A DNA stretch of 64,000 nucleotides from a virus. Positions 2,163 through 63,752 of the stretch are shown here, piece by piece. The notes under the pieces were generated by a model, which was not told where the DNA came from, did not search any database, and saw only the letters and a program-made list of their open reading frames with translations. The translations under genes and the position numbers were made by a program. The DNA lies in the IMG/VR virus record IMGVR_UViG_3300029554_000010, positions 8,938 through 72,937 of that record. One strand, 5' to 3'. Within the stretch, counting starts at the first letter, position 1. Each line of letters begins with the position of its first letter.

Positions 2163-2504
2163 ATGAGGAAGATTGAGAAATTGCTGATCGCAGCAGGAGT
2201 AATTCTCTTTGCCAACTACATAATCCACTTGCCAATGTGCGTGAAAGACTATGCCAATAAGGATTTTGGTATATACTCAACCCAAACTATGCACAAGCAT
2301 TCAACGCTTACTATGAGCACGGTTTTGAAACCGGCGTCTAAATCTACGCTCAAATTCTACATTTCACCGCACAAATCAGATTTTATCTTTGACTACACAA
2401 ATAATTTCTATGCGATCATAAATATTCCAGTCTATCTCTGGCAGTTTGCAAGGGCGAATATTAATCCATGTGTCCTGTTTTCATTGGACTTACGGAAAAT
2501 ATGA
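2163..2504 (+). CDS. hypothetical small membrane protein
   Basis: RBS AGAGG 8 nt upstream; hydrophobic N-terminal segment. Confidence 0.4.
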   Translation: MRKIEKLLIAAGVILFANYIIHLPMCVKDYANKDFGIYSTQTMHKHSTLTMSTVLKPASKSTLKFYISPHKSDFIFDYTNNFYAIINIPVYLWQFARANINPCVLFSLDLRKI

Positions 2505-2696
2505 TAAAGATAAATGTTCGAATGCATATTTTTCACTGTCCAGACATATACTGTAGTAAAGTTTCAATTGGGAGGGTTATTTATGGATTATAAGAAAGAG
2601 ATTATTGAATTATTAGATAAGGTAAAATTAGAAAGTACTTTAAAAAGAGTATACAAGTTGCTGGTATACTTATATTTAAGAGAAGAGTAGCCTAAA

Positions 2697-2729
2697 ATGC
2701 CGCATCTACAGTTAAAGCAGATGCGGCAT
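2697..2729. terminator. bidirectional intrinsic terminator (ATGCCGCATCT-loop-AGATGCGGCAT) between convergent genes
   Basis: perfect 11-bp inverted repeat read directly. Confidence 0.55.
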
Positions 2730-2734
2730 AATAA

Positions 2735-3427
2735 TTATTCTGTTTTTAAATCATCTGGCGATGCGGAGAAATAATATTCGAATTCGGAACTGTCATAATC
2801 GCTGCCTAACATTGAATTTATTTTGTCCGCAATAGATGTTCCTAATTCCTCTCCGAATTCAGCGTCTTCAACTTTTGTTCTTTTATATTCTGTAAAAATG
2901 TTTCCCCAGTCGTCTTGTGTGCCTGCATAGTAAATCTGGATGAGATCGCCGTCTTCTTTAGGATTTAAGTAAGATAAGGTTTTATCTGTTACGTTTATCA
3001 TACTTTTAGGAAAAAATACTTTTTGAACATCACAGGAATTAAAAGCAGCATCATATATTTCAGTAATTCCTTCTTGAAAAATAACTGATTCAACATGAGA
3101 ACTTCCAATTCCGATCTGGAAATCTGATAAATCTGTTGCGTAGTCTGTTCCGTCAATATTGTATGATGGAAGAATTTCTAAAATTTTGCACTTGCCATCA
3201 TAACCGTGCAATTTCACAGAGTTTCCCTCTATATCATAATCAAAATCACCGATTACACCGTACTTTTCAGAATCATCCTTTTGAACTACAACGCCAGTCA
3301 CGCCACCTGCATAAGTTGGAGTAGAAACTCCTAAAATTGCAAAAGTACAAAATGCAATTAATAGCTTTTTCTTCATAGACATTTCCTCCTTGGTATTAGT
3401 TGATTTTATTATATCACTATAAATCAA
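2735..3427 (-). CDS. secreted or lipoprotein-like protein of unknown function
   Basis: N-terminus MKKKLLIAFCTFAILGVSTPTYAGG looks like a signal peptide; acidic C-terminus. Confidence 0.6.
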   Translation of the reverse strand: MIYSDIIKSTNTKEEMSMKKKLLIAFCTFAILGVSTPTYAGGVTGVVVQKDDSEKYGVIGDFDYDIEGNSVKLHGYDGKCKILEILPSYNIDGTDYATDLSDFQIGIGSSHVESVIFQEGITEIYDAAFNSCDVQKVFFPKSMINVTDKTLSYLNPKEDGDLIQIYYAGTQDDWGNIFTEYKRTKVEDAEFGEELGTSIADKINSMLGSDYDSSEFEYYFSASPDDLKTE

Positions 3428-3484
3428 AACAACAAAGCAGAATATAAAAAAGACCAGAGTTTTTTATTCTCTGGCCTTTCTTTT

Positions 3485-3847
3485 TTAATTGTTTTCCAAT
3501 TCTGTTAGGATTTCTTGGAGTTGCTTCCAATGTTCATCACTGAGCTTTGCGAACTTTACAAGAATTTTCTTAGCAAAGTCATTATCCCCGGTCATTACCG
3601 AATCAACGATAGCCTGCGCATCACTATCGTCGCTTTGGAACATATCTCCGATTCCGTTTACGAGCCAGTCATAATTGACTTTGTAGCTGGCACATATTAG
3701 TTTGATGTTCTTTTCGGATAGATCACGTTGACCGTTTTCAATCATGGACAATGCCGCTTGTTTAATTGCGAGTGTCTCTGCGAAGTCTTTCTGATTCTTT
3801 CCTAATTGTTTACGAAGAATCGAAACTCTTTCATTTATTGTTTCCAA
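3485..3847 (-). CDS. XRE-family HTH transcriptional repressor (phage CI-like)
   Basis: HTH segment QKDFAETLAIKQAALSMIENGQR; transcribed divergently from the early genes across an operator-containing intergenic region. Confidence 0.8.
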   Translation of the reverse strand: METINERVSILRKQLGKNQKDFAETLAIKQAALSMIENGQRDLSEKNIKLICASYKVNYDWLVNGIGDMFQSDDSDAQAIVDSVMTGDNDFAKKILVKFAKLSDEHWKQLQEILTELENN

Positions 3848-3874
3848 TGCTTGTCCCTCCTTTCAATATTATAA

Positions 3875-3965
3875 TATCACTAGAGTGATAAAAAGTCAAC
3901 AAAAATGTAATATCATGCTTGACAAAATATTACTCTAGTGATATATTATAATCACACAAGTGATA
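3875..3965. promoter_or_regulatory. immunity-region operators: three 16-bp palindromes (TATCAC-N4-GTGATA type) overlapping a TTGACA-17-TATATT promoter
   Basis: O1 3875-3890 TATCACTAGAGTGATA, O2 3928-3943 TATTACTCTAGTGATA, O3 3950-3965 AATCACACAAGTGATA; -35 TTGACA at 3919-3924, -10 TATATT at 3942-3947. Confidence 0.55.
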
Positions 3966-3983
3966 CAGAAAGGAGTGAGAGGA

Positions 3984-4145
3984 ATGACAGGTGATAGACG
4001 AGAAGCGTTTAGAAAAATGGTAGAACGTTTTAATAATCTGCCAGAGAAAAAGCAAGATCAAATGCTCTGGTATGGAAAAGCAATCATTGATATAGAGGAA
4101 AGCGAATCCAGTAAAAAAGAACCTGCAACAGTAAAAAGTGATTAA
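3984..4145 (+). CDS. small early protein, Cro-like by position
   Basis: first gene transcribed rightward from the operator region; RBS AAAGGAG; small basic protein. Confidence 0.4.
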   Translation: MTGDRREAFRKMVERFNNLPEKKQDQMLWYGKAIIDIEESESSKKEPATVKSD

Positions 4146-4152
4146 GAAAGGA

Positions 4153-4971
4153 GTGATAAGCACGAACCAGTTAGTACATATTGGAAATTCAGACATTTCC
4201 ATAAAAGAGTATAACGGTCAGCGAGTTGTAACGTTCAAAGATATTGACATGGTACACGGTAGACCAGACGGAACAGCAAGCAGAAATTTTAGAACCAACA
4301 GAGAGCGTTTCATAGAGGGTGAAGATTTCTTCCGAGTAAGCGCCGACGAAATTCGTCGCACCAAAATTTTTGACATTCCAGACAAGGCAACTTCTGATTA
4401 CGCCCTTATGACAGAACAAGGATATCTGATGTTAGTAAAGTCTTTTACAGACAATTTAGCATGGGATGTTCAGAGACAGCTTGTGAATGGATATTTCAAA
4501 ACCAGAGAAAAAGTAAAAAGGGCATTATCACCAGAACTTCAAATGTTGCAGGGACTACTTTCACAAATGGTAGAGAAAGAACTTGCTGATAAAGAAAGAG
4601 ACCGGCAGATTTTGCTTGCCAAAGAAACAGCAGATAAAGCTGTTGCGACTACAGAGAATATCAAAGAAGCAGTTAAACCGGTGTTCGATAACTGGCGTTC
4701 AGAAATCAATTTGAAATTCAATCGCATACAAAAATGTGCAGGAGCAGAGTTCAGAATGCTGAGAACAGAAATGTATCAAGAATTGGAACGCAGAGCAGGA
4801 TGTGATTTGAGTACTAGGCTGAGGAACAAACGCAACCGTATGCAAGAAAAAGGGTGTACGAAGACAACGATTAATGCACTCAATAAAATGGATATCATTG
4901 ACGATGATAAAAAGTTGCGTGAGATTTTCTCAAAGATCGTAACTGAATACGAAATTAAATATTGTGCGTAG
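4153..4971 (+). CDS. phage antirepressor, ORF6N / KilA-C type
   Basis: N-terminal region TNQLVHIGNSDISIKEYNGQRVVTFKDIDMVHGRPDG...NFRTNRERFIEGEDFF resembles the ORF6N domain; GTG start after an RBS (an alternative start is 4138). Confidence 0.65.
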   Translation: MISTNQLVHIGNSDISIKEYNGQRVVTFKDIDMVHGRPDGTASRNFRTNRERFIEGEDFFRVSADEIRRTKIFDIPDKATSDYALMTEQGYLMLVKSFTDNLAWDVQRQLVNGYFKTREKVKRALSPELQMLQGLLSQMVEKELADKERDRQILLAKETADKAVATTENIKEAVKPVFDNWRSEINLKFNRIQKCAGAEFRMLRTEMYQELERRAGCDLSTRLRNKRNRMQEKGCTKTTINALNKMDIIDDDKKLREIFSKIVTEYEIKYCA

Positions 4972-7095: not shown

Positions 7096-7257
7096 ATGTC
7101 TAAAATCACAAAACACACCGAAAACGTAACTAAAAACCAGAGTCTTGCAAGCGAAATCATCGCAGATCAGGTGGCAAAAACAAAACGTCTGGAAGTCGCA
7201 GTTGTAGCACTATCAGTAGCTTTGCTTGCAACAGCAACAACAAAAAGAAAGAAGTGA
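7096..7257 (+). CDS. small protein with a C-terminal TM helix
   Basis: 53 aa; RBS AGGAGGG; hydrophobic C-terminus. Confidence 0.35.
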   Translation: MSKITKHTENVTKNQSLASEIIADQVAKTKRLEVAVVALSVALLATATTKRKK

Positions 7258-7451
7258 GGGATATGAGAAAAAGAATGTATTTTATCGGAGTGATGGCACA
7301 GGTTGGAACATTTGCCACGATTGCATTATTGCTCTGGTGGATGACGAAAATGGATGTACTTAAGCTGTTCTGCATAAGTGCAATGGTATCTTCAATGGTA
7401 TCCCTTCCTATTTTAATGCAGATAGAAAGGTGGGTAAACGGAGTTGAATAA
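7254..7451 (+). CDS. small membrane protein
   Basis: two hydrophobic segments in 65 aa; overlapping start and stop with its neighbours. Confidence 0.4.
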   Translation: MRDMRKRMYFIGVMAQVGTFATIALLLWWMTKMDVLKLFCISAMVSSMVSLPILMQIERWVNGVE

Positions 7452-8061
7452 ACTTTTAGAAAACAATCAGGTAACACTGGTTGGAGAAATTAAAACAGAA
7501 TTTGAATTTAGCCATGAAGTATATGGTGAAAAATTTTACCGATTCGAACTTAGCGTAGAACGATTTAGTGGAACGAAAGATGTTCTTCCGGTTGTAGTTT
7601 CTGAGAGACTCATTGATGTGAATCAGAACTATACAGGAGAAATGATGGAAATTCAAGGGCAGTTTAGATCGTTCAATAAGCACGAAGAAAATCACAGTAG
7701 ATTGCTTCTTTTTGTGTTCGCAAGAGAAGCAAAATTCATGGACAAAGACGCACTTCCAGTTAATCAGATTCTTCTGGATGGTTTTACTTGCAAGAAACCA
7801 GTATACAGAACAACACCTAATGGAAGAGAGATTGCAGATGTACTTCTGGCGGTAAATAGATCATACGGCATATCTGATTACATACCATGCATCTGCTGGG
7901 GCAGAAATGCAAGATACATGGGAACCTGCGGAACTGGCACACATATTATTTTACAGGGAAGAATCCAGAGCAGAGAGTACAACAAAAAAGTCGGAAATCA
8001 GGTCGAGAAGAAAACAGCCTATGAAGTGTCGGCTTATTGGGTGGAGGATAAGGAAGAATGA
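7444..8061 (+). CDS. divergent SSB-like OB-fold protein (two OB-like halves)
   Basis: N-terminus NQVTLVGEI and ...HIILQGRIQSREYNKKVGNQV...TAYEV resemble SSB-type OB folds; only weak similarity. Confidence 0.4.
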   Translation: MNKLLENNQVTLVGEIKTEFEFSHEVYGEKFYRFELSVERFSGTKDVLPVVVSERLIDVNQNYTGEMMEIQGQFRSFNKHEENHSRLLLFVFAREAKFMDKDALPVNQILLDGFTCKKPVYRTTPNGREIADVLLAVNRSYGISDYIPCICWGRNARYMGTCGTGTHIILQGRIQSREYNKKVGNQVEKKTAYEVSAYWVEDKEE

Positions 8062-10034
8062 AAACAGTAGAATTGAAACAGCTTAACATTGAAAACTACA
8101 AGAAGTTTGAGTCTGCGGAGTATCAGTTTGCACCACGAACGATGGTGTCCGGTAGGAACCGTCAGGGTAAAACAACGTTGATGGACGCATATTTTGATAC
8201 ACTGACCGGAAAGCTTGCAGACGGTACATCTCCGAATAATGTCAGAAGAAAAGAAGACGGAGAAGAAGTTGAGGGTGTCGTATCAAGAGAACTCACACTT
8301 CTGATTGATGGAGAGGAAACCGTGATCCGTAAGGAAACGAAGAAAGGTAAATCTTCCAGTACCACAAAATATCAGGTTGATGGGTTTGATTACAACCAGA
8401 CGAAGTATAAGGAATTTTTAAAAGGAATATCAGACTCAGAAACCATTATGATGTGTAGTAATGCCAGAGTATTCCTTAATGAACTTCGAAAATCAACAGC
8501 AAGTGCCAGAGTAATGCTTGAAAAGATGGCAGGGTTCAATGCGGATAAAGTATTACAGGACAATCCAGAAGTTTCGGAAATCATCAAGAATCATTCTGTC
8601 GAGGAAGTTGTGAAAAAACTCAATAGAGACAAAAAAGACTTCCAGAAGAAAATTGATGCCAAAAAGGTTGAAATTGATACCGTAAAGAAACAGGGAACAC
8701 CAGATTTTACCATTCTTGAAGAAAAGAAGAATGCCGTGCTGGATAAACTGAATGGTCTTCTTGAAAAAGAAAAGCTGCTAAATGAAACCAATAAAGCATA
8801 TGACGAGCTCTGCTACGAGATTACAGGTCTCAAGAAATCCAGAGATGCGATCATTTCAAATGCAGCAGAAGCATTACAGGAAGAAAAGAGAAAAATCGTT
8901 TCCTTATTAAGTGACAGGCGATTCAAGCAGAAACATGAAGAAGAAAATCTCCGAATTCTGGGAAATTTCCTTGCGACCGCTGAGAAACCAGAACGAATTC
9001 AGCAGAGAATTACGGTTTTGCAGGAGAAATATAAACAGACGTATGCGTCCACATTTGATGAAACAGCTTTAAATGCAATACAGAATGAAAAATTTGATCC
9101 TGAATCAGCTATTTGCCCGACCTGCGGACAGGCACTTCCGGAGGAACAGGTTGAACGTCTTAAAACTGAATTTGAACAGAAGAAACAGGAAAGAATCCAT
9201 GCAGAGTTTGCGAAAAAAGAGCAGTTTAAAGCAGACAAACAGCAGAAACTTAAAGACATTACAGAAGAAGGCAATTCCGAAGTAGCCAGAAGAAAAGAAG
9301 TTGAGGAAAAGCGCAAAGACATCGAATCGCAGATTGAGCAGACAAAGAAAAATATTTCCACTCTGGCATCTGAGATTGCGCAGAAAAATCAGGAATTAGA
9401 GAAGCTTCCGGCAGAGCCAGATATGTCTGGAAATGAAGAGTATCAGGCAGTTGTAGCAGAAATCCAGAAGAAACAGGAACAGCTTGACGGACTGACTAAT
9501 AATTCTGAGGAAAATGCAGCAGTTCAGGCAGAAAGAATGTCTGCTGAAAAGGAACTTACAGGAATCGAAATAAAAATTGAGATGGCAAAACAGGCAGTTC
9601 AGAAACAGACAGAAACACTTGAACAGCTGAACACAGAACAGAAAGAGTTAGGTCAGGAAGATTCCGATATTCAGCAGAAACTTGACATGTTGAAAGAATT
9701 TTCCATCAAAAAAAATCAGGCACTGGCAGAAGCTATCAATCCACTTTTCAAGCATTTTCAGTTTCAGTTTTTGGACTATACGCAGGACGGTGAACCGGTG
9801 GAAGTTTGCAAGATGATTTGTGACGGAATCGGATATTTTGATGGATTGAATCACTCTGATCAGATTCTATGCAATATTGACCTCGTGACTGGATTGCAGG
9901 AGCTGAACGGACTGAATCTTCCAATTTGGGTTGACGATGCGGAATCCGTGAATGAAGAACGATTCCCAAAGATGGAACAGCAGGTTATTTACTTGAAAGT
10001 ATCTGACAATGAGTTGACAGTGGGGGGATTTTAA
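8058..10034 (+). CDS. SbcC/Rad50/RecN-like ATPase with a long coiled coil and CxxC hook
   Basis: N-terminal Walker A GRNRQGKTT; extensive E/K/Q-rich coiled coil; CPTCGQALPEEQ zinc-hook-like motif; C-terminal Walker B-like IWVDDAES. Confidence 0.75.
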   Translation: MKTVELKQLNIENYKKFESAEYQFAPRTMVSGRNRQGKTTLMDAYFDTLTGKLADGTSPNNVRRKEDGEEVEGVVSRELTLLIDGEETVIRKETKKGKSSSTTKYQVDGFDYNQTKYKEFLKGISDSETIMMCSNARVFLNELRKSTASARVMLEKMAGFNADKVLQDNPEVSEIIKNHSVEEVVKKLNRDKKDFQKKIDAKKVEIDTVKKQGTPDFTILEEKKNAVLDKLNGLLEKEKLLNETNKAYDELCYEITGLKKSRDAIISNAAEALQEEKRKIVSLLSDRRFKQKHEEENLRILGNFLATAEKPERIQQRITVLQEKYKQTYASTFDETALNAIQNEKFDPESAICPTCGQALPEEQVERLKTEFEQKKQERIHAEFAKKEQFKADKQQKLKDITEEGNSEVARRKEVEEKRKDIESQIEQTKKNISTLASEIAQKNQELEKLPAEPDMSGNEEYQAVVAEIQKKQEQLDGLTNNSEENAAVQAERMSAEKELTGIEIKIEMAKQAVQKQTETLEQLNTEQKELGQEDSDIQQKLDMLKEFSIKKNQALAEAINPLFKHFQFQFLDYTQDGEPVEVCKMICDGIGYFDGLNHSDQILCNIDLVTGLQELNGLNLPIWVDDAESVNEERFPKMEQQVIYLKVSDNELTVGGF

Positions 10035-38873: not shown

Positions 38874-38948
38874 TCTAGGGCTATCGCCAAAAGGTAAGGT
38901 AACGGACTTTGATTCCGTCATGTGTGGGTTCGAATCCCACTAGCCCAG
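38874..38948 (+). tRNA. tRNA-like, anticodon TTG (Gln), with an atypical D-arm
   Basis: perfect anticodon stem ACGGA/TCCGT with loop CTTTGAT, T-arm GTGGG-TTCGAAT-CCCAC, acceptor AGGGCTA/TAGCCCA with an A-A pair at 1:72. Confidence 0.35.
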
Positions 38949-39182
38949 CTTGCTAGGTTGCGCATGTACCTGGCAATGGTTTATTTTACATAGACCCTCC
39001 GACGAAAACCCATCTAGCTCAACGGAGCTGATTAAAGGGGCTTCAAATGTCCCGGATGGGAATCATCGTAAAAACGATGTACTCTATTTAGCCATGACCT
39101 TTGTTGCGGCTGGTGGCAAAGAACCGCAACAGTAGAAGCAAATCAACTCAAAATCTGCAATCCGGGAGACTGCTTCTACTCA

Positions 39183-39255
39183 GGAAATTTAGTTCAGCGG
39201 TTAGAACGCCCGGCTCATAACCGGGAAGCCCTGAGTTCGAATCTCAGAATTTCCA
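39183..39255 (+). tRNA. tRNA-Met (CAT anticodon; elongator Met or Ile2-lysidine type)
   Basis: acceptor GGAAATT/AATTTCC, D-arm GTTC-AGCGGTTA-GAAC, anticodon arm CCCGG-CTCATAA-CCGGG, T-arm CTGAG-TTCGAAT-CTCAG; 3' CCA not encoded. Confidence 0.7.
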
Positions 39256-39786
39256 TTTCTTCCGTATGCTACCCATCCGTTTTATGGGCAGAAAAAACTT
39301 TCGGATGAGCGTATGTGAATCAGAATGAGCAAAGGTATGTAACGGCATAGGCTTGTGCTTGATCTGATTTCCCGTCCGATAAATGTTTCTTAGTTTCAAT
39401 AAGCCATCACAAGCGCGCATTGATGGCAGGGAGTTTTCAAGAAGCATAAAGTTAAAAGGCATAATAATATCCGAAACAACTCCGTGGAGCATACCACGGT
39501 TACCAAAAAGCCGTCAGGTTGGCAAAAATACGATAGTCCAAGTTATGAAAAATTGCCTAGTGGAAAGCATAACACGAAAAAATCATTGCTAACCCGGAAC
39601 AATCTCCGGGTTCTGGGGGAATAATACCATAAGGGGCAGAGGGCTGATTAACAGTACCAGAGCGGTTCAACTCCGCATTCTCCCATTATCCAATCTGTAA
39701 ATATTGGATATGAGGAAGCTGTCCGAGATGTAAGAAACAGTCGGCTTGTGGATTGCCGGTACAAATACGCTGAAAATCCACACAAG

Positions 39787-39856
39787 GCAGGGTAGAGAAG
39801 CGGAATCTCGCAAGGTTCATATCCTTGAGAACGGCGGTTCAAATCCGTCTCCTGCA
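39787..39856 (+). tRNA. tRNA-like, anticodon CAT, with an imperfect acceptor stem
   Basis: D-arm GAGA-AGCGGAA-TCTC, anticodon arm CAAGG-TTCATAT-CCTTG, T-arm GGCGG-TTCAAAT-CCGTC; mismatch at the top of the acceptor stem. Confidence 0.35.
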
Positions 39857-39974
39857 ATTAATTTGGTCGGAATTATGCTGTCTGTATACAGGCGGTCTAT
39901 GATTCGGCTGAATTTATCTCATGAGAAAAGGTTATTGCTTATCCTGTTGTCTGGTGTCCGGACCGAAAAGCATG

Positions 39975-40047
39975 ATGGAATGTAGATCAGTGGTAGAGCA
40001 ATGGCCTTGTAAGCTATGTGTCGCAGGTTCGATTCCTGCCTTTCCGA
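39975..40047 (+). tRNA. tRNA-like with a TGT anticodon loop and T-arm GCAGG-TTCGATT-CCTGC; acceptor stem not resolvable by eye
   Basis: D-arm-like GATCAGTGGTAGAGC, anticodon arm ATGGC-CTTGTAA-GCTAT. Confidence 0.25.
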
Positions 40048-58665: not shown

Positions 58666-60240
58666 ATGGCCGATAATACCATAGATACCCTCAATATACA
58701 AATAGAGAGTAGCACAACTCAGGCGGTGCGGTCTATTAATAACCTTGTAAAAAAATTAGATACATTAAACACTGCTTTTGGAAATCTTGACATAAGCCGG
58801 TTAAATAATTTTTCCAATTCTTTAAAAAGTTTAGGTAGCGTGAATTTTAAAGCAAATGGATTGAATGCGGCTATAAACGCTATCAATCGTCTTGGAAAAT
58901 CTGATTTCAGTCAGTTTGATACAGGGAAATTAGGCGAAATTCTTACCGAGATGCAGAAACTTGATGCTATTCCAGATGTTTCTCCGAGCGTTAGCCGGTT
59001 CACAACCGCTATAGCTAAACTTGCCGGTACAGGACAGTATATCGGCAATGTATCAAAGGAACTTCCGAATCTTGCGACAGGTTTAAATAATGCGGCTACT
59101 AAATTAGGCTCTATGAGCGAAGTATCAGCATCCACCAATGCTTTTATTACTTCTCTTGGAAAATTAGCTAGTGCAGGAGATAAAACCGGAAAGACTGCAA
59201 GTCAATTATCGACTCTCGCGCAAGAGGTTTTAAAGTTTTTTGACGTAATGAAAAGCGTACCAGATATCAGTTCGAGCACAATAAGAATGACAGAAGCTCT
59301 TGCAGTATTAGCATCGTCTGGAAGCAAAGTAGGGCGTGCCACAAGTAGCGTTTCGAATTCATTTAACACGCTTTCTTCGTTAGGTTCAAAAGCAAGTACT
59401 GTAATTAATGGGCTGACAAATGCTTTTCAAAAATTTGCTTCAAAAGCTATTTCTTTAGGCGGAAAAGCCGTATCTGCAATCGCAGGTATTGGAAATGCAT
59501 CTTCTGAAGCTGGTGAAAAAATAAGAAGATTGTCAAATCCTCTGAGTTCGGTAACGAATAAGTTGAGTGCTCTTTACGCCAAAGGTTTTCTCGCAAAAAG
59601 AGCATTAGATGTTCTGGCATCGCCAGTAGAATCCGCAATGAACTATGTAGAGACTCTGAACTATTTCAACTCTGCGTTCAATCAGGTGGCAGAAGGAATC
59701 AACACTAATGAATGGAAGAAAAGTGGTATAAAATCTGCTGAAGCATATGCAAATTCATTCCAAGAAAGAGCAAAACAGCTTTCACAGAAACTGACAGGAT
59801 TCGAAATTTCAGATACTGGCGAACTGACTAGAACCAATACCGCCAGTCTTGGACTTGACCCAGAAAAGACAATGCAGTATCAGGCAACATTTGCGCAGAT
59901 GGCATCATCTATGGGAGATACATCAGAGACTGCATTAAAGTTGTCTAATGTACTCACTATGATTGGCGCAGACCTTGCATCTGTAAGAAATATGAACTTT
60001 GAAGATGTATGGCAGGACATGGCATCTGGCTTGACCGGTATGAGCCGCGCTATGGATAAGTACGGCATCAATATCCGTAATGCCAACATGCAACAGGAAC
60101 TATATAATCTTGGAATTAATACCAGCATATCGAATTTGTCTCAGGCAGATAAAACGATTCTAAGAACGATTATCTTGCTGAACAACTCTAAGTATGCGTG
60201 GGCTGATTTGTCAGAAACGATAAATAGGTCAGTAGCGTGA
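58666..60240 (+). CDS. tape measure protein, N-terminal segment
   Basis: long alpha-helical A/S/L/N-rich protein in the canonical tape-measure position. Confidence 0.6.
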   Translation: MADNTIDTLNIQIESSTTQAVRSINNLVKKLDTLNTAFGNLDISRLNNFSNSLKSLGSVNFKANGLNAAINAINRLGKSDFSQFDTGKLGEILTEMQKLDAIPDVSPSVSRFTTAIAKLAGTGQYIGNVSKELPNLATGLNNAATKLGSMSEVSASTNAFITSLGKLASAGDKTGKTASQLSTLAQEVLKFFDVMKSVPDISSSTIRMTEALAVLASSGSKVGRATSSVSNSFNTLSSLGSKASTVINGLTNAFQKFASKAISLGGKAVSAIAGIGNASSEAGEKIRRLSNPLSSVTNKLSALYAKGFLAKRALDVLASPVESAMNYVETLNYFNSAFNQVAEGINTNEWKKSGIKSAEAYANSFQERAKQLSQKLTGFEISDTGELTRTNTASLGLDPEKTMQYQATFAQMASSMGDTSETALKLSNVLTMIGADLASVRNMNFEDVWQDMASGLTGMSRAMDKYGINIRNANMQQELYNLGINTSISNLSQADKTILRTIILLNNSKYAWADLSETINRSVA

Positions 60241-60491
60241 TAAATGCGTAGCTACTGGCAAGTCGCTCATATCGAAACCGTCAAGTAGGATATGAGTTAT
60301 TAGTGATGAAATAAGCTGGAAAGCCGTTTGCAACGGTAATCAGAGAGTGAAGGCTATGATTAAAAGTATAGTCAACCGCAACGCGTAGGAAGTGAAACTG
60401 TAGTTGAGATACTACAGAATATAATCTTCCCAAGAGGCATCACTATCGGACGGTACAGGTGCAGAGCCTGTGGTAAAAAGGTACGCTGGAC
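60241..60491 (+). other. ~250-nt untranslated interruption between the two tape-measure reading frames
   Basis: stop codons in all three forward frames; an in-frame TAA lies 15 nt before the ATG at 60492; ...SETINR before the gap resembles ...SLTITNR after it. Confidence 0.5.
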
Positions 60492-63400
60492 ATGCATTGT
60501 AATAATGCAGAAGTGAGGATAAAAAGCCTTACGATAACAAATCGAAATCAACCGGCAAATCAGATTCGTATGCTTCAATCTAACTTTGCATCCCTTGGTA
60601 GAACAATAGGTTCCTTATTCATTCCTATACTGCAAACAGTACTTCCATATATCAATGCAATAGTAATCGCAATACAAAGAATGTTCGCTTATATTGCAAA
60701 ACTTCTTGGAATCAAACTGTCTAACTTTGTATCATCTACTGGCGGTATTTCTGTAGATACAAGTAACATTGCGGATGATATGGATAATGCCAGTGATTCT
60801 ATTGATACTGCAAATAAGAATGCCAAAAAACTCAAAAAAACATTGTCAGTTCTTTCATTTGATGAACTGAATCAGCTTAATGACAATTCTGATTCTGGTA
60901 GTACAAGTAATCCATCTTCTGGCTCTGGAAAAGGCGGTTTGGGGCATATCGGAGCACTTGATGCAGCTTTGGACGATGCTTTGTCTGCATATCAAAAAGC
61001 ATGGGACGAAGCATTCAAGAAAATGTCCAACAGGGCAAATGAAATGGCAGATGCCATTGTAAATGCCTTTAAGAGAAAAGACTGGAAAGGTCTTGGAAAA
61101 ATCATGGCTGATGGCATTAACTGGGGAATGCAAAAGCTTTATGATTTCATTAACTGGAATAACGTAGGCCCTTACATCACTAAATTCACCAGTGCGTTCA
61201 CCCAGACTTTCAACAGCCTTGTTGATAATATCAACTGGGATTTGATGGGACGTACCGTTGGAGCTGGTATTAATACAATAGTTAATACAGCCAATCAGTT
61301 ACTTGAGGGAACGAATTTCAAAAACCTTGGCAAGAAATTTGCAGAAGGCATCATGGGGCTTTCTCGTGAAGTTGACTGGACTAATCTTGGAAATTTGATT
61401 GGTAATAACTTTATGAAGAGCTGGCACATTTTCTATGGTTTTGTTTCAAATCTTAAATATGACGAAATCGGAATTAATATCGGAAATGCCCTTAATGGTA
61501 TATTTGAGAAAATTAATTTCACAGAAATTGCTAGTGCATTAACAACTGGAATAAACGGCGCATTTACAGCACTTGCAAGCTTCACAGCAACATTCAATTG
61601 GGATGACTTCACTAAAAATCTTGGCGATGGGATTTCCAAATTTATATCCGATATGCACTGGAAAGAGAATGGAAAGGCTCTCGGAGACTTTCTTAGCCAT
61701 TTATGCGATGCCCTGATAGATGCATTAACTCCTAATACATTCAGAAAGCTTGGAGAAGGCATTGGCGATTTTATCGGGCAACTTCCATGGGGAAAATTAC
61801 TTGCAACAGCCGCTAAATTGCTCATAAGCGGATTTGGCGAAGCAATGTCTGGACTGTGGGAAAGCGGATTGTCCGGAAAGATCACAGCCGGTCTTACAAC
61901 AGCTTTTGTTGCTGTAAAAATCGCAGATATCACAGGAATCGGAACACTTGTCGGAAAACTTATCGGTCATATCGGTGATAAAATCATGGCAAAAGAAAGT
62001 GCTGATATTATTGCCGAAAAATTATCCAGTATTCTTGGACAAGGAACATCCGAAGCAACACAAGTTCTTGACGGACTGGGCGAAGCGGCAGGAACATCTG
62101 GTGGGAAATTCGCTTCACTGGCAAAAGAGTTGGGACCATTGGTAGGTACAGCGGGATTAATTGTTGGTGTAGGTGCAGCGGCGGTTTATGCAACTTCTAA
62201 AATTGCCGGTATGGTAGAAAGTATGCAAGGCGGCAATGGAGTAGGAACCACATTTGGCAATACCATGGATAATTTCATTCAGACATTACAACAACGTGGC
62301 GACATAATATCTGGTTCTGCAACGGAAATTTGGAACTTGAAAGAATCTCTCGAAAAAGAAGGAATGACAGCAGAAGAGCAATCTGCGGCAACTCAGAAGA
62401 TAATTGACAAACTCGGAGAAATGGGAGTGACATCAGATCAGGCAGAACAGGCATTTTCTTCTTTGTATCAGCAAGGACTTATCACGGATGATATGTTTGA
62501 TATTCTATCAGAATCTATCAAAACATTAGGTGATAAATCAACGAATATGGCAGGTAGTCTCAATCTTAGCAAATACTCTGTTGATGAGTTGGCAGAAGTC
62601 CTTCCGAAGTTAACTACTCAGTTGGGATTAAATTCTGACCAACAGACTCAACTTAATACCGCATTATACGATATGCCTAATGCAAGTGGTACAGCTCAGG
62701 GAGCTTATGAAAACATCATGGCAACCGCAAAAGAAATGGGATTGAATACGGAATCTGTTGCAAAGATTTTTGCAGAAACATTCCCCGATGCAGTTCAGAC
62801 CGCAAAAGAATCTGTGTCTAAGCAAACATCAGAAATTAGATGGAATACCACCAGAGATTTCAATGATGCGGCAGGTGCGGTAACAAAAGCTACTGGTCAG
62901 ATGAAGAGTACTGCCATGAGCGATTATGAGGCAATTCATTCAAAAGCCACCGAATCTTCTCAGGGAGTCGCTACGGCAACTGTAACGCAATGGGGAAGTT
63001 CTGCAAGAGAGGTTTCCAAGAACCTTGATTCAATGAAGCAAGCAGCCAACTTGAAACTGGGAGAAATGCAGAAAACTGTAGAATCCCATTTTTCATCACA
63101 GTATAATACTATGACAAATAAATGGGAAAAAGCAGCAGAGCGTATCACCGGAAGGGGGCAGATTGTTGATTCTTTAGATTCTACACTTAGCAGAAAAGTT
63201 CCGTCTATGTCAAAATATTTCGATCAACTTTCAGGTAATATTTCAAAGAGTCTGAGTAGATTACATAGTGTCGGAGCAAATGCCGCAACCAGCCTGTATA
63301 ATGGAATGAAATCCGTGAGAATGCCTACGCTTTCGTATTATATTTCTCAGTGGAAAACACATAGCCTTGGGAACGGTGGTACCAGTTCAACCCCTGTCTA

Positions 63401-63752
63401 TAGTCCGAACTGGTACGCTAAAGGTGGTTTGTTCAAAAATGCATCTGTCATTGGTGTAGGCGAAGCAGGACAGGAAGCCGTTCTTCCTTTGGAAAATCGT
63501 AAAGCCATGAAATCCATTGCCGACAGTATCATGTCTGGATATGACGGCAACATGGGACTTACGAAAGATGAGATCATGGAAGCTGTTGAGCGTGGTGTAG
63601 TTACTGCTTTGATGAACAATGGTGGCTTTGGCGGTTCTTCGCCGGAGTACATCATGAACAGCATCAAAGTGAACGAGCGTGAACTGGCGCGAATTGTCAC
63701 AAAGGCTCAGAACAACACAGATTACCGCATGAATCCGTCCCCGGCATATTGA
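60492..63752 (+). CDS. tape measure protein, C-terminal segment
   Basis: 1086 aa; begins NQPANQIRMLQSNFASLGRTIGSLFIPIL, with long G/A/S/T-rich helical repeats. Confidence 0.7.
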   Translation: MHCNNAEVRIKSLTITNRNQPANQIRMLQSNFASLGRTIGSLFIPILQTVLPYINAIVIAIQRMFAYIAKLLGIKLSNFVSSTGGISVDTSNIADDMDNASDSIDTANKNAKKLKKTLSVLSFDELNQLNDNSDSGSTSNPSSGSGKGGLGHIGALDAALDDALSAYQKAWDEAFKKMSNRANEMADAIVNAFKRKDWKGLGKIMADGINWGMQKLYDFINWNNVGPYITKFTSAFTQTFNSLVDNINWDLMGRTVGAGINTIVNTANQLLEGTNFKNLGKKFAEGIMGLSREVDWTNLGNLIGNNFMKSWHIFYGFVSNLKYDEIGINIGNALNGIFEKINFTEIASALTTGINGAFTALASFTATFNWDDFTKNLGDGISKFISDMHWKENGKALGDFLSHLCDALIDALTPNTFRKLGEGIGDFIGQLPWGKLLATAAKLLISGFGEAMSGLWESGLSGKITAGLTTAFVAVKIADITGIGTLVGKLIGHIGDKIMAKESADIIAEKLSSILGQGTSEATQVLDGLGEAAGTSGGKFASLAKELGPLVGTAGLIVGVGAAAVYATSKIAGMVESMQGGNGVGTTFGNTMDNFIQTLQQRGDIISGSATEIWNLKESLEKEGMTAEEQSAATQKIIDKLGEMGVTSDQAEQAFSSLYQQGLITDDMFDILSESIKTLGDKSTNMAGSLNLSKYSVDELAEVLPKLTTQLGLNSDQQTQLNTALYDMPNASGTAQGAYENIMATAKEMGLNTESVAKIFAETFPDAVQTAKESVSKQTSEIRWNTTRDFNDAAGAVTKATGQMKSTAMSDYEAIHSKATESSQGVATATVTQWGSSAREVSKNLDSMKQAANLKLGEMQKTVESHFSSQYNTMTNKWEKAAERITGRGQIVDSLDSTLSRKVPSMSKYFDQLSGNISKSLSRLHSVGANAATSLYNGMKSVRMPTLSYYISQWKTHSLGNGGTSSTPVYSPNWYAKGGLFKNASVIGVGEAGQEAVLPLENRKAMKSIADSIMSGYDGNMGLTKDEIMEAVERGVVTALMNNGGFGGSSPEYIMNSIKVNERELARIVTKAQNNTDYRMNPSPAY

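Follow-up and report, generated by a model that had tools for sequence, protein, structure and literature searches.

A putative group I intron without an open reading frame in a phage tail tape-measure gene, and its relatives in other phage genes

That phage tape-measure and terminase genes can hold group I introns has been known at least since 2008, when Tourasse & Kolstø described the group I introns TMP-IVS1/2/3 in such genes of Bacillus cereus-group prophages (PMC2504315). Subgroup IA2 is described as having P7.1 and P7.2 in domain 7 together with an extended P9 domain (P9.0/P9.1/P9.2) (PMC4227781), and a 2025 survey states that the Rfam model of group I introns does not cover those of phages completely and that the phage 'IA2' group is heterogeneous (PMC11878797). 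Introns also interrupt orf142 and nrdE of Staphylococcus phage Twort (L129 in our set; AY954970), and self-splicing is cited for nrdE introns of this kind (Landthaler et al. 2002, as referred to in a citing paper). Here we analyze a 64,000-nt stretch of viral DNA (IMG/VR record IMGVR_UViG_3300029554_000010, positions 8,938 to 72,937; hereafter the window), in which the gene for the tail tape-measure protein is interrupted. Judged from sequence, positions 60222-60544 are, with a probability of about 0.92, a group I intron of the phage IA/IA2-like type that contains no open reading frame (ORF). [quoted passage not shown] The window copy comes from a phage that is uncultivated and probably of the gut, and its site (ETI|NQPANQ) could not be matched to any of IVS1-3. 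The window element is otherwise expected from that work, and the points added here are that its sub-lineage is abundant and is invisible to the Rfam group I model RF00028.

Gene callers find two ORFs in this gene, both on the + strand, as are all window features described below. The first, 58666..60240, ends where the initial annotation had placed its end, at TGA 60238-40 after ...LSETINRSVA, with a TAA following; the next long ORF, 60492..63752, lies in a different frame, and stops do occur in all three frames between the two, as had been noted. The interruption itself is real, but it measures 323 nt (60222-60544), rather than the ~250 nt first estimated, and is devoid of any ORF; the interrupting region folds better than shuffled sequence (z = -3.65). 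Joining 58666-60221 to 60545-63752 yields a single 1587-aa ORF reading ...KYAWADLSETINQPANQIRMLQSNF... (...WADLSETI·NQPANQ...), the product of which is a tail length tape-measure protein by PHROG profiles. Two tape-measure profiles span the spliced junction as one continuous match (E = 1e-77 and 5e-33), while a Pfam search of the spliced tape-measure segment returned no significant family. In a protein search with the spliced junction, intron-less homologues crossed it gap-free (...KYAWADLS(E/N)TINQPANQIRMLQ...), including P0001 (93% identical, ...DLSNTINQPANQIRMLQ...), P0003 and P0017.

The contig encoding P0001 (L127) carries the intron-less allele at the DNA level. Positions 575-800 of this contig correspond to window 60000-60225 (98%) and positions 798-1047 to window 60546-60795 (92%). 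In L127 these matches share 3 nt, so that the window holds exactly 323 extra bases. The only true junction repeat is AAAT, present at both ends of the insert, which permits five cut positions with the same product; among these equivalent cuts, only 60221|60545 has U as the base preceding it and leaves G at the end of the intron. Alignment with uninterrupted homologues, proposed in the initial annotation as a check, has given the exact insertion point, and the corrected annotation of the tape-measure gene is join(58666..60221, 60545..63752). Exon 1 (58666..60221) ends ...GAA ACG AU with U60221 as its last base, its junction fixed by the intron-less homologues and the L127 DNA; the intron (60222..60544) ends in G60544 (omega-G); and exon 2 (60545..63752) begins A AAU CAA CCG, that is, (I)NQP.... 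Among near relatives, the intron of L041 is 100% identical to that of the window (exon 1, 95.0%; exon 2, 100%) and that of L109 is 98.8% identical (exon 1, 97.2%; exon 2, 90.7%), whereas L127 lacks it (exon 1, 97.1%; exon 2, 94.2%). The intron is present or absent among near relatives and, with an identity of 98.8-100% alongside exon identities of 90.7-100%, is not decaying.

These findings bear on the view that the gene is truly split, with halves 58666-60240 and 60492-63752 translated separately and the spacer either inert or a degenerate, non-splicing intron. Two ORFs are indeed called, AAGG lies ~10 nt upstream of ATG 60492, and many database proteins stop at the end of the first ORF (~524-530 aa, covering 51% of the query). 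However, both ATG 60492 and AAGG sit in a family-invariant J8/7-P7-P9 core (described below), so that the ribozyme accounts for both; the first 17 residues of the second 'ORF' are intron-encoded; and truncated database proteins are what gene callers are expected to produce from intron-bearing alleles. Moreover, homologous proteins are single chains, leaving the earlier proposal of two tape-measure halves unsupported, and the intron is conserved as much as the exons or more, with every core pairing kept. We consider a split gene improbable. Resumption of tape-measure coding at 60477-60492, as first proposed, likewise did not hold: the true restart is 60545, and the peptide 'MHCNNAEVRIKSLTITNR' is a chance ORF extension over P9, P9.1 and the tail of the intron; copies located in helicase and terminase genes have the DNA behind it (ACGATAACAAATYGAAATCA) at their 3' end as well.

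Other means of bypassing the interruption, namely a group II intron, stop-codon recoding, a programmed frameshift or ribosome hopping, appear hardly credible. Phages do use recoding and hopping, and the window encodes four transfer RNAs (tRNAs). Against this, the frames differ and stops occupy all three frames over 323 nt, a length that is, to our knowledge, far beyond any known ribosome hop, and no suppressor is present among the window tRNAs. As for a group II intron, no Rfam model matched, the ends read AAAUAG...AAAUCG and not GUGYG...AY, and 323 nt is too short compared with over about 600 nt. The tRNA cluster occupies 38877-40047 and comprises Gln-UUG, two copies of Met-CAU and Thr-UGU.

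The fold that we assign to the group I intron was examined using three alignments of related copies: A1, a plain, unfitted MAFFT alignment of 40 copies; A3, an unfitted alignment of 21 compact copies; and A5, a model-fitted alignment of 94 distinct copies. RNAalifold applied to A1 already yields P6, P7, P7.1 and P8. When 44 pairs were scored on A3, with P7 written as a pseudoknot across P3, 92.2% of cells were paired compared to 35-44% in slid controls, double-change cells numbered 236 compared to 27-65, and the covariation score was 0.66 compared to ≤0.17, a value as high being reached in none of 500 shuffles. On A5, 95.9% of cells were paired (30-49% slid), with 687 double-change cells (49-104 in controls) and a covariation score of 0.60 (≤0.13; 0 of 500 shuffles as high). 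Many of the A3 pairs are G·U pairs compatible with + strand RNA only.

P3 (GUGAUG 60303-08 with CAUCAC 60438-43) encloses P4-P6, the 5' strand of P7, and P7.1, and was 99.2% paired on A3 with compensatory changes in 6/6 of its pairs. P4 (60316-19/60340-43) is joined by A-rich J4/5 and J5/4 to P5 (60323-28/60332-37); the P4/P5 helix was 85.5% paired on A3, with double changes in 6 pairs, the window sub-type being shifted by one column at P4/P5 in the MAFFT alignment. Both A3 and RNAalifold on A1 place P6 (60347-48/60375-76; tentative, 2 bp) and P6a (GGCUAU 60352-57 with AUAGUC 60368-73). The initial annotation had likened AAAGUAUAGUCAA to a group I S box that could pair with GGCUA as P7; the pairing exists, but as the local hairpin P6a (60352-60373). 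A P7 formed by GGCUA and AUAGUC was rejected because its strands are only 10 nt apart, with no room for P3' and P8. The real P7 spans 60381-87/60482-87, with 60381 and 60383-87 paired: A60381-U60487 precedes a bulged C60382, followed by the guanosine-site-like pair G60383-C60486 and by C60384-G60485, G60385-C60484, U60386-A60483 and A60387-U60482. P7 was 100% paired in sets of 40, 21 and 28 sequences, its R:Y pair covarying AU/GC without exception; in A5 the outer pair across the bulge was AU in 62 copies and GC in 27, and a G-C pair followed the bulge in 87/94.

Between the P7 5' strand and P3' lies P7.1 (60388-92/60426-30), with an inner extension, P7.1a (60398-404/60411-17), and then an invariant CAAGAG (60431-36). 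P7.1 was 100% paired on A3, with compensatory changes in 4/5 pairs, and 97.5% paired in the 94 sequences of A5. P8 consists of an outer (60445-47/60472-74) and an inner (60455-59/60467-71) helix separated by the internal loop GGACGGU (60448-54) and closed by the loop UGCAGAG; GGUGCAGAGCC (60458-68), considered as an R box or P7 strand, was rejected in that role, as it is the P8 terminal loop region. An A-rich J8/7 (60475-81) precedes the P7 3' strand. P9 (60491-98/60504-10) is a hairpin that holds the spurious ATG 60492; it was 98.9% paired in the 94 sequences, and L9 is GAAA-capped in most of the family. P9.1 (60513-18/60527-32) has an invariant loop, AUAAAAAG, and was 99.0% paired with compensatory changes in 7/7 pairs (A5). 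The element ends 12 nt past P9.1 with the tail GAUAACAAAUCG, which terminates in omega-G60544. A pairing of tail GAUAAC with J2/3 UUAUC was dropped, as it was inconsistent across members.

We next consider the 5' domain and its contact with P8. P2 (60266-73/60289-96) is a conserved hairpin that is GNRA-capped in most of the family; the window sub-type instead has an enlarged P2 loop. Within this loop, ACCGUC (60277-82) complements GACGGU (60449-54) of the P8 internal loop over 6 Watson-Crick base pairs. Across 15 distinct variants tested (e.g., ACUACC/GGUAGU, ACCGAC/GUCGGU, AUUGCC/GGCAAU and GUCAUC/GAUGAC), 90% of cells were paired, compared to 21-39% in 5/6 slid controls and 64% for the +3 slide, which counts only 3 pairs. 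Double-change cells numbered 26 compared to ≤5 in controls, and on three of five measures no shuffle attained the observed value; the variants in L196 and L216 do not fit. Compact bacterial group I introns of the Azoarcus type form L2-P8 and L9-P5 tetraloop-receptor contacts. Most members of the present family carry GNRA on P2 and GAAA on P9, where such contacts form, whereas in the window sub-type a base-paired contact apparently takes the place of the L2-P8 tetraloop-receptor contact.

The 5' splice site is defined by P1, in which exon bases CGAU (60218-21) pair with the guide GUCG (60262-65), leaving a U60221·G60262 wobble at the splice site. As a rule of the family, the last four bases of the exon are complementary to the four bases directly 5' of P2, with G paired to the final exon U. 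This guide pairing, U·G wobble included, holds in six host contexts and changes with the host gene: exon end and guide are CGAU/GUCG in the window, UGGU/GCCG in L092, phiR1-37 gyrA and a Bacillus helicase (at Walker A GxxGK|S), GGCU/GGCC in L110, and GGCU/GGUC in L120. Besides the window site, the contexts are gyrA, helicase and three further ones in tail genes. No P1 could be fitted in L098. G is likewise the last base of the phiR1-37 and Bacillus helicase copies, and when the guide rule was applied to phiR1-37 it gave a 1290-nt intron containing g328, with a predicted GyrA junction (...FVGTTIG·RYHPHGDSS...) that is gap-free compared to solved ParC/GyrA chains (2inr_A, E = 2e-50). These rules for P1, guide and terminal G are those of group I introns.

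An assignment of g328 as a gyrA exon, which seemed to break the U/G rule, was rejected: g328 is a LAGLIDADG endonuclease ORF inside the family intron. Yersinia phage phiR1-37 (L001; AJ972879, 1204-4992) is annotated with g327 as 'DNA-gyrase IV A-subunit', g329 as 'DNA-gyrase A-subunit' and g328 without a product name; g327 and g329 are exons of one gyrA gene. In the window, P1 is extended by a hairpin (60228-36/60251-59) with a conserved 14-nt loop (60237-50). Members of the sub-type share this loop, GUGAUAAAUGCGUA, with a consensus of about G-Y-R-W-R-AUAAAUGC-R-UA, while its stem covaries; neither a partner nor a function was found for the loop.

The element is one of a family dispersed over different genes. 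A blastn search of the region against annotated phages gave matches confined to the interior of the insert. They fall where genes of unrelated phages are split and the gap has no annotation: gyrA of Yersinia phiR1-37, the helicase of a Bacillus phage, tail genes of Clostridium and Staphylococcus phages, and a Staphylococcus terminase. The sequence ...GAGGAUAAAAAGCCUUUACGAUAACAAAUYGAAAUCA recurs in copies from different host genes, indicating that this is element sequence and not tape-measure coding, with its 3' boundary at 60544. The family motif was found in at least 119 viral contigs in each of two motif scans, and tape-measure genes of Bacillus phages likewise match the family 3' hairpin. 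We built a covariance model, R1, of the intron 3' domain from this family alone; a full-length model would comprise ~229 positions, and for the 5' domain we rely on the unfitted alignment A3. With R1, 89 loci yielded 102 copies, a contig often holding two or three of them; the window gave exactly one match, at 60378-60545 (102 bits, E about 7e-20). Endonuclease ORFs are present in some copies, a LAGLIDADG ORF in phiR1-37 (g328) and a GIY-YIG ORF in Staphylococcus phage IMEP5, and many other relatives end in a ...YLxRKY... motif.

A multi-copy family found in many genes might also be a DNA-level insertion, that is, a miniature transposon (a miniature inverted-repeat transposable element, or a remnant of an insertion sequence [IS] or IStron) with a target-site duplication, kept in the RNA. 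ACGATAA occurs at 60217-23 and again at 60531-37, AAAT flanks both junctions, and the tail motif GAUAACAA is similar to the motif of GAACAA type found ahead of the IS part in IStrons. The near-duplication at the edges that the initial annotation reported thus exists, but it is no edge or target-site duplication: the second ACGATAA is internal, consisting of the family-conserved P9.1 3' strand and tail. Terminal inverted repeats were not found, and there is no transposase ORF, stops being present in every frame. Furthermore, conservation tracks RNA pairing, including strand-specific G·U pairs and the pseudoknot, and insertion sites follow the guide-pairing rule and not a fixed target sequence. 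IStrons (an IA2 intron with IS200/IS605 or IS607) share with the window element an IA2-like ribozyme, an extended P9 domain and a GAAYAA-type motif near the 3' end (PMC4227781), but the window element lacks an IS component or transposase and ends 12 nt past P9.1. We therefore regard a transposon insertion as very improbable.

The closest described introns are those of Twort. RF00028 finds the three Twort orf142 introns at 64-101 bits. R1 matches two of the orf142 introns, which score 97-101 bits with RF00028, and one further Twort site, at 30-34 bits (E about 1e-4 to 1e-5, E-values from R1 being rough). The further site (locus ~7218-7622) lies in the gene for the large subunit of ribonucleotide reductase, between ORFs covering positions 1-74 and 122-388 of Pfam Ribonuc_red_lgC; since it splits this profile, it represents an nrdE intron. 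An exact-motif search in Twort found none, only the covariance model giving a match. Helix order is shared by the Twort 3' half, junction sequences are nearly identical, and the two can be aligned helix by helix: GUAAC-P7...AUAUAGUCUGAAC, a GAAA-capped P9, GAAG, a P9.1 hairpin and the tail GUAACAUAAUUG in Twort correspond to GUAACGCRUA...AUAUAYGCUGAAC, P9, GAAG, P9.1 and GAUAACAAAUUG in this family. Both occupy essential phage genes and include ORF-less as well as endonuclease-bearing forms. The main difference is in P7, where this family has GCRUA/UAYGC and Twort GACUA/UAGUC; in addition, the P9.1 loop of this family is invariant (AUAAAAAG). In contrast to the IA2 description, with P7.1 and P7.2, the domain between P7 and P3' holds a single hairpin, P7.1, sometimes with a P7.1a extension as in the window, followed by P9 and P9.1 in a Twort-like 3' half.

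RF00028 gave no match in 59900-60900 even at E <= 10 and none on four relatives of the family, its matches in the Staphylococcus locus being other introns; an Rfam gathering scan of the whole window produced no intron match. We first took the silence of RF00028, a check proposed in the initial annotation, as evidence against a group I intron; this was dropped after the Twort control. Because RF00028 also misses the Twort nrdE intron, its silence refutes no intron, and the lack of a model match above threshold is not valid as a refutation. One L004 copy, 3778-3939, is found with R1 at 71 bits and with RF00028 at a sub-threshold 41.5 bits.

Taken together, the precise absence from a near-identical allele, the covariation-backed fold, a guide pairing that covaries with the host gene, the endonuclease-bearing relatives and the model-level homology to Twort make it probable that this is a small, self-splicing group I intron, a possibility raised in the initial annotation. 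Several observations weigh on the other side. RF00028, as noted, is silent, and the R1 matches on Twort are modest. Two P7 base pairs deviate from the canonical GACUA/UAGUC, the outer pairs of P6 and part of P8 in the window copy are weaker than the family consensus, and alignment A5 was fitted to the model. In addition, P1 of the window is only 4 bp long, and inspection revealed no convincing complement to AAAUCA beside the guide that might serve as P10, a helix that is weak in many group I introns.

If the intron is active, its RNA would fold in the late transcript, and P1 would arise from pairing of guide GUCG (60262-65) with exon CGAU, placing the U60221·G60262 wobble at the splice site. 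Free guanosine bound at P7 G60383-C60486 would then attack after U60221. Terminal G60544 would next take the same P7 site, and the freed 3'-OH of U60221 would attack after G60544, joining the exons as ...ACG AUA AAU CAA CCG... (...ETINQP...). The junction of the ligated-exon RNA would read ...ACGAUAAAUCAACCG... / ...GTCAGAAACGATAAATCAACCGGCAAATC..., with a junction peptide of ...LSETINQPANQIR..., and full-length tape measure would be made from spliced mRNA only. Lacking an endonuclease, the window copy probably spreads passively, by recombination between co-infecting phages, or is assisted in trans.

Additional observations were made on related loci and on the surroundings of the gene. Two or three family copies lie within a few kb in the viral contigs L005 (MT835481; 3061-3212, 4084-4213 and 5030-5105), L010, L017, L025, L057, L082 and L095. 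The P5 loops of L017 (10055-10336) and L124 (2927-3209) hold what appears to be a decayed C-terminal remnant of a LAGLIDADG ORF (...FYLQRKYDKFNYY), which suggests endonuclease loss in place. In Staphylococcus phage PT1-1 (L004; PP212900), at least 3 introns break the tape-measure region 2300-4300, with family copies at 2411-2570 and 3778-3939 and a classical RF00028 match at 3952-4286; the tape-measure pieces are all annotated as hypothetical proteins. In the window, an int-alpA RNA motif (RF02996; 63882-63952, 52.2 bits compared to a gathering score of 35.8) lies ~130 nt downstream of the tape-measure stop, an unusual location for a motif usually tied to integrase/alpA genes.

As a tentative view, somewhat less probable than its contrary, the family may constitute a distinct sub-lineage of phage group I introns that has not yet been modelled. 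It would be characterized by two changed P7 pairs by the guanosine site, an invariant P9.1 loop and tail and, in the window sub-type, an L2-P8 contact made by base pairing instead of by a tetraloop-receptor; it would be abundant in uncultivated phages, spreading into tail, packaging and replication genes, mostly without an endonuclease of its own, and missed by standard annotation. RF00028 has a blind spot for it, as 0/5 copies tested (the window and four relatives) scored even though at least 119 viral contigs were found per motif scan, in agreement with the 2025 warning on models that miss phage intron variants (PMC11878797). Alignments A3 and A5, together with R1, could seed a better model. 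For the tape-measure gene, gene callers split what is correctly one 1587-aa protein into 'proteins' of 524 aa and 1086 aa, a truncation repeated in many database entries. Since tape-measure length is thought to set tail length, such split calls misdescribe the virion.

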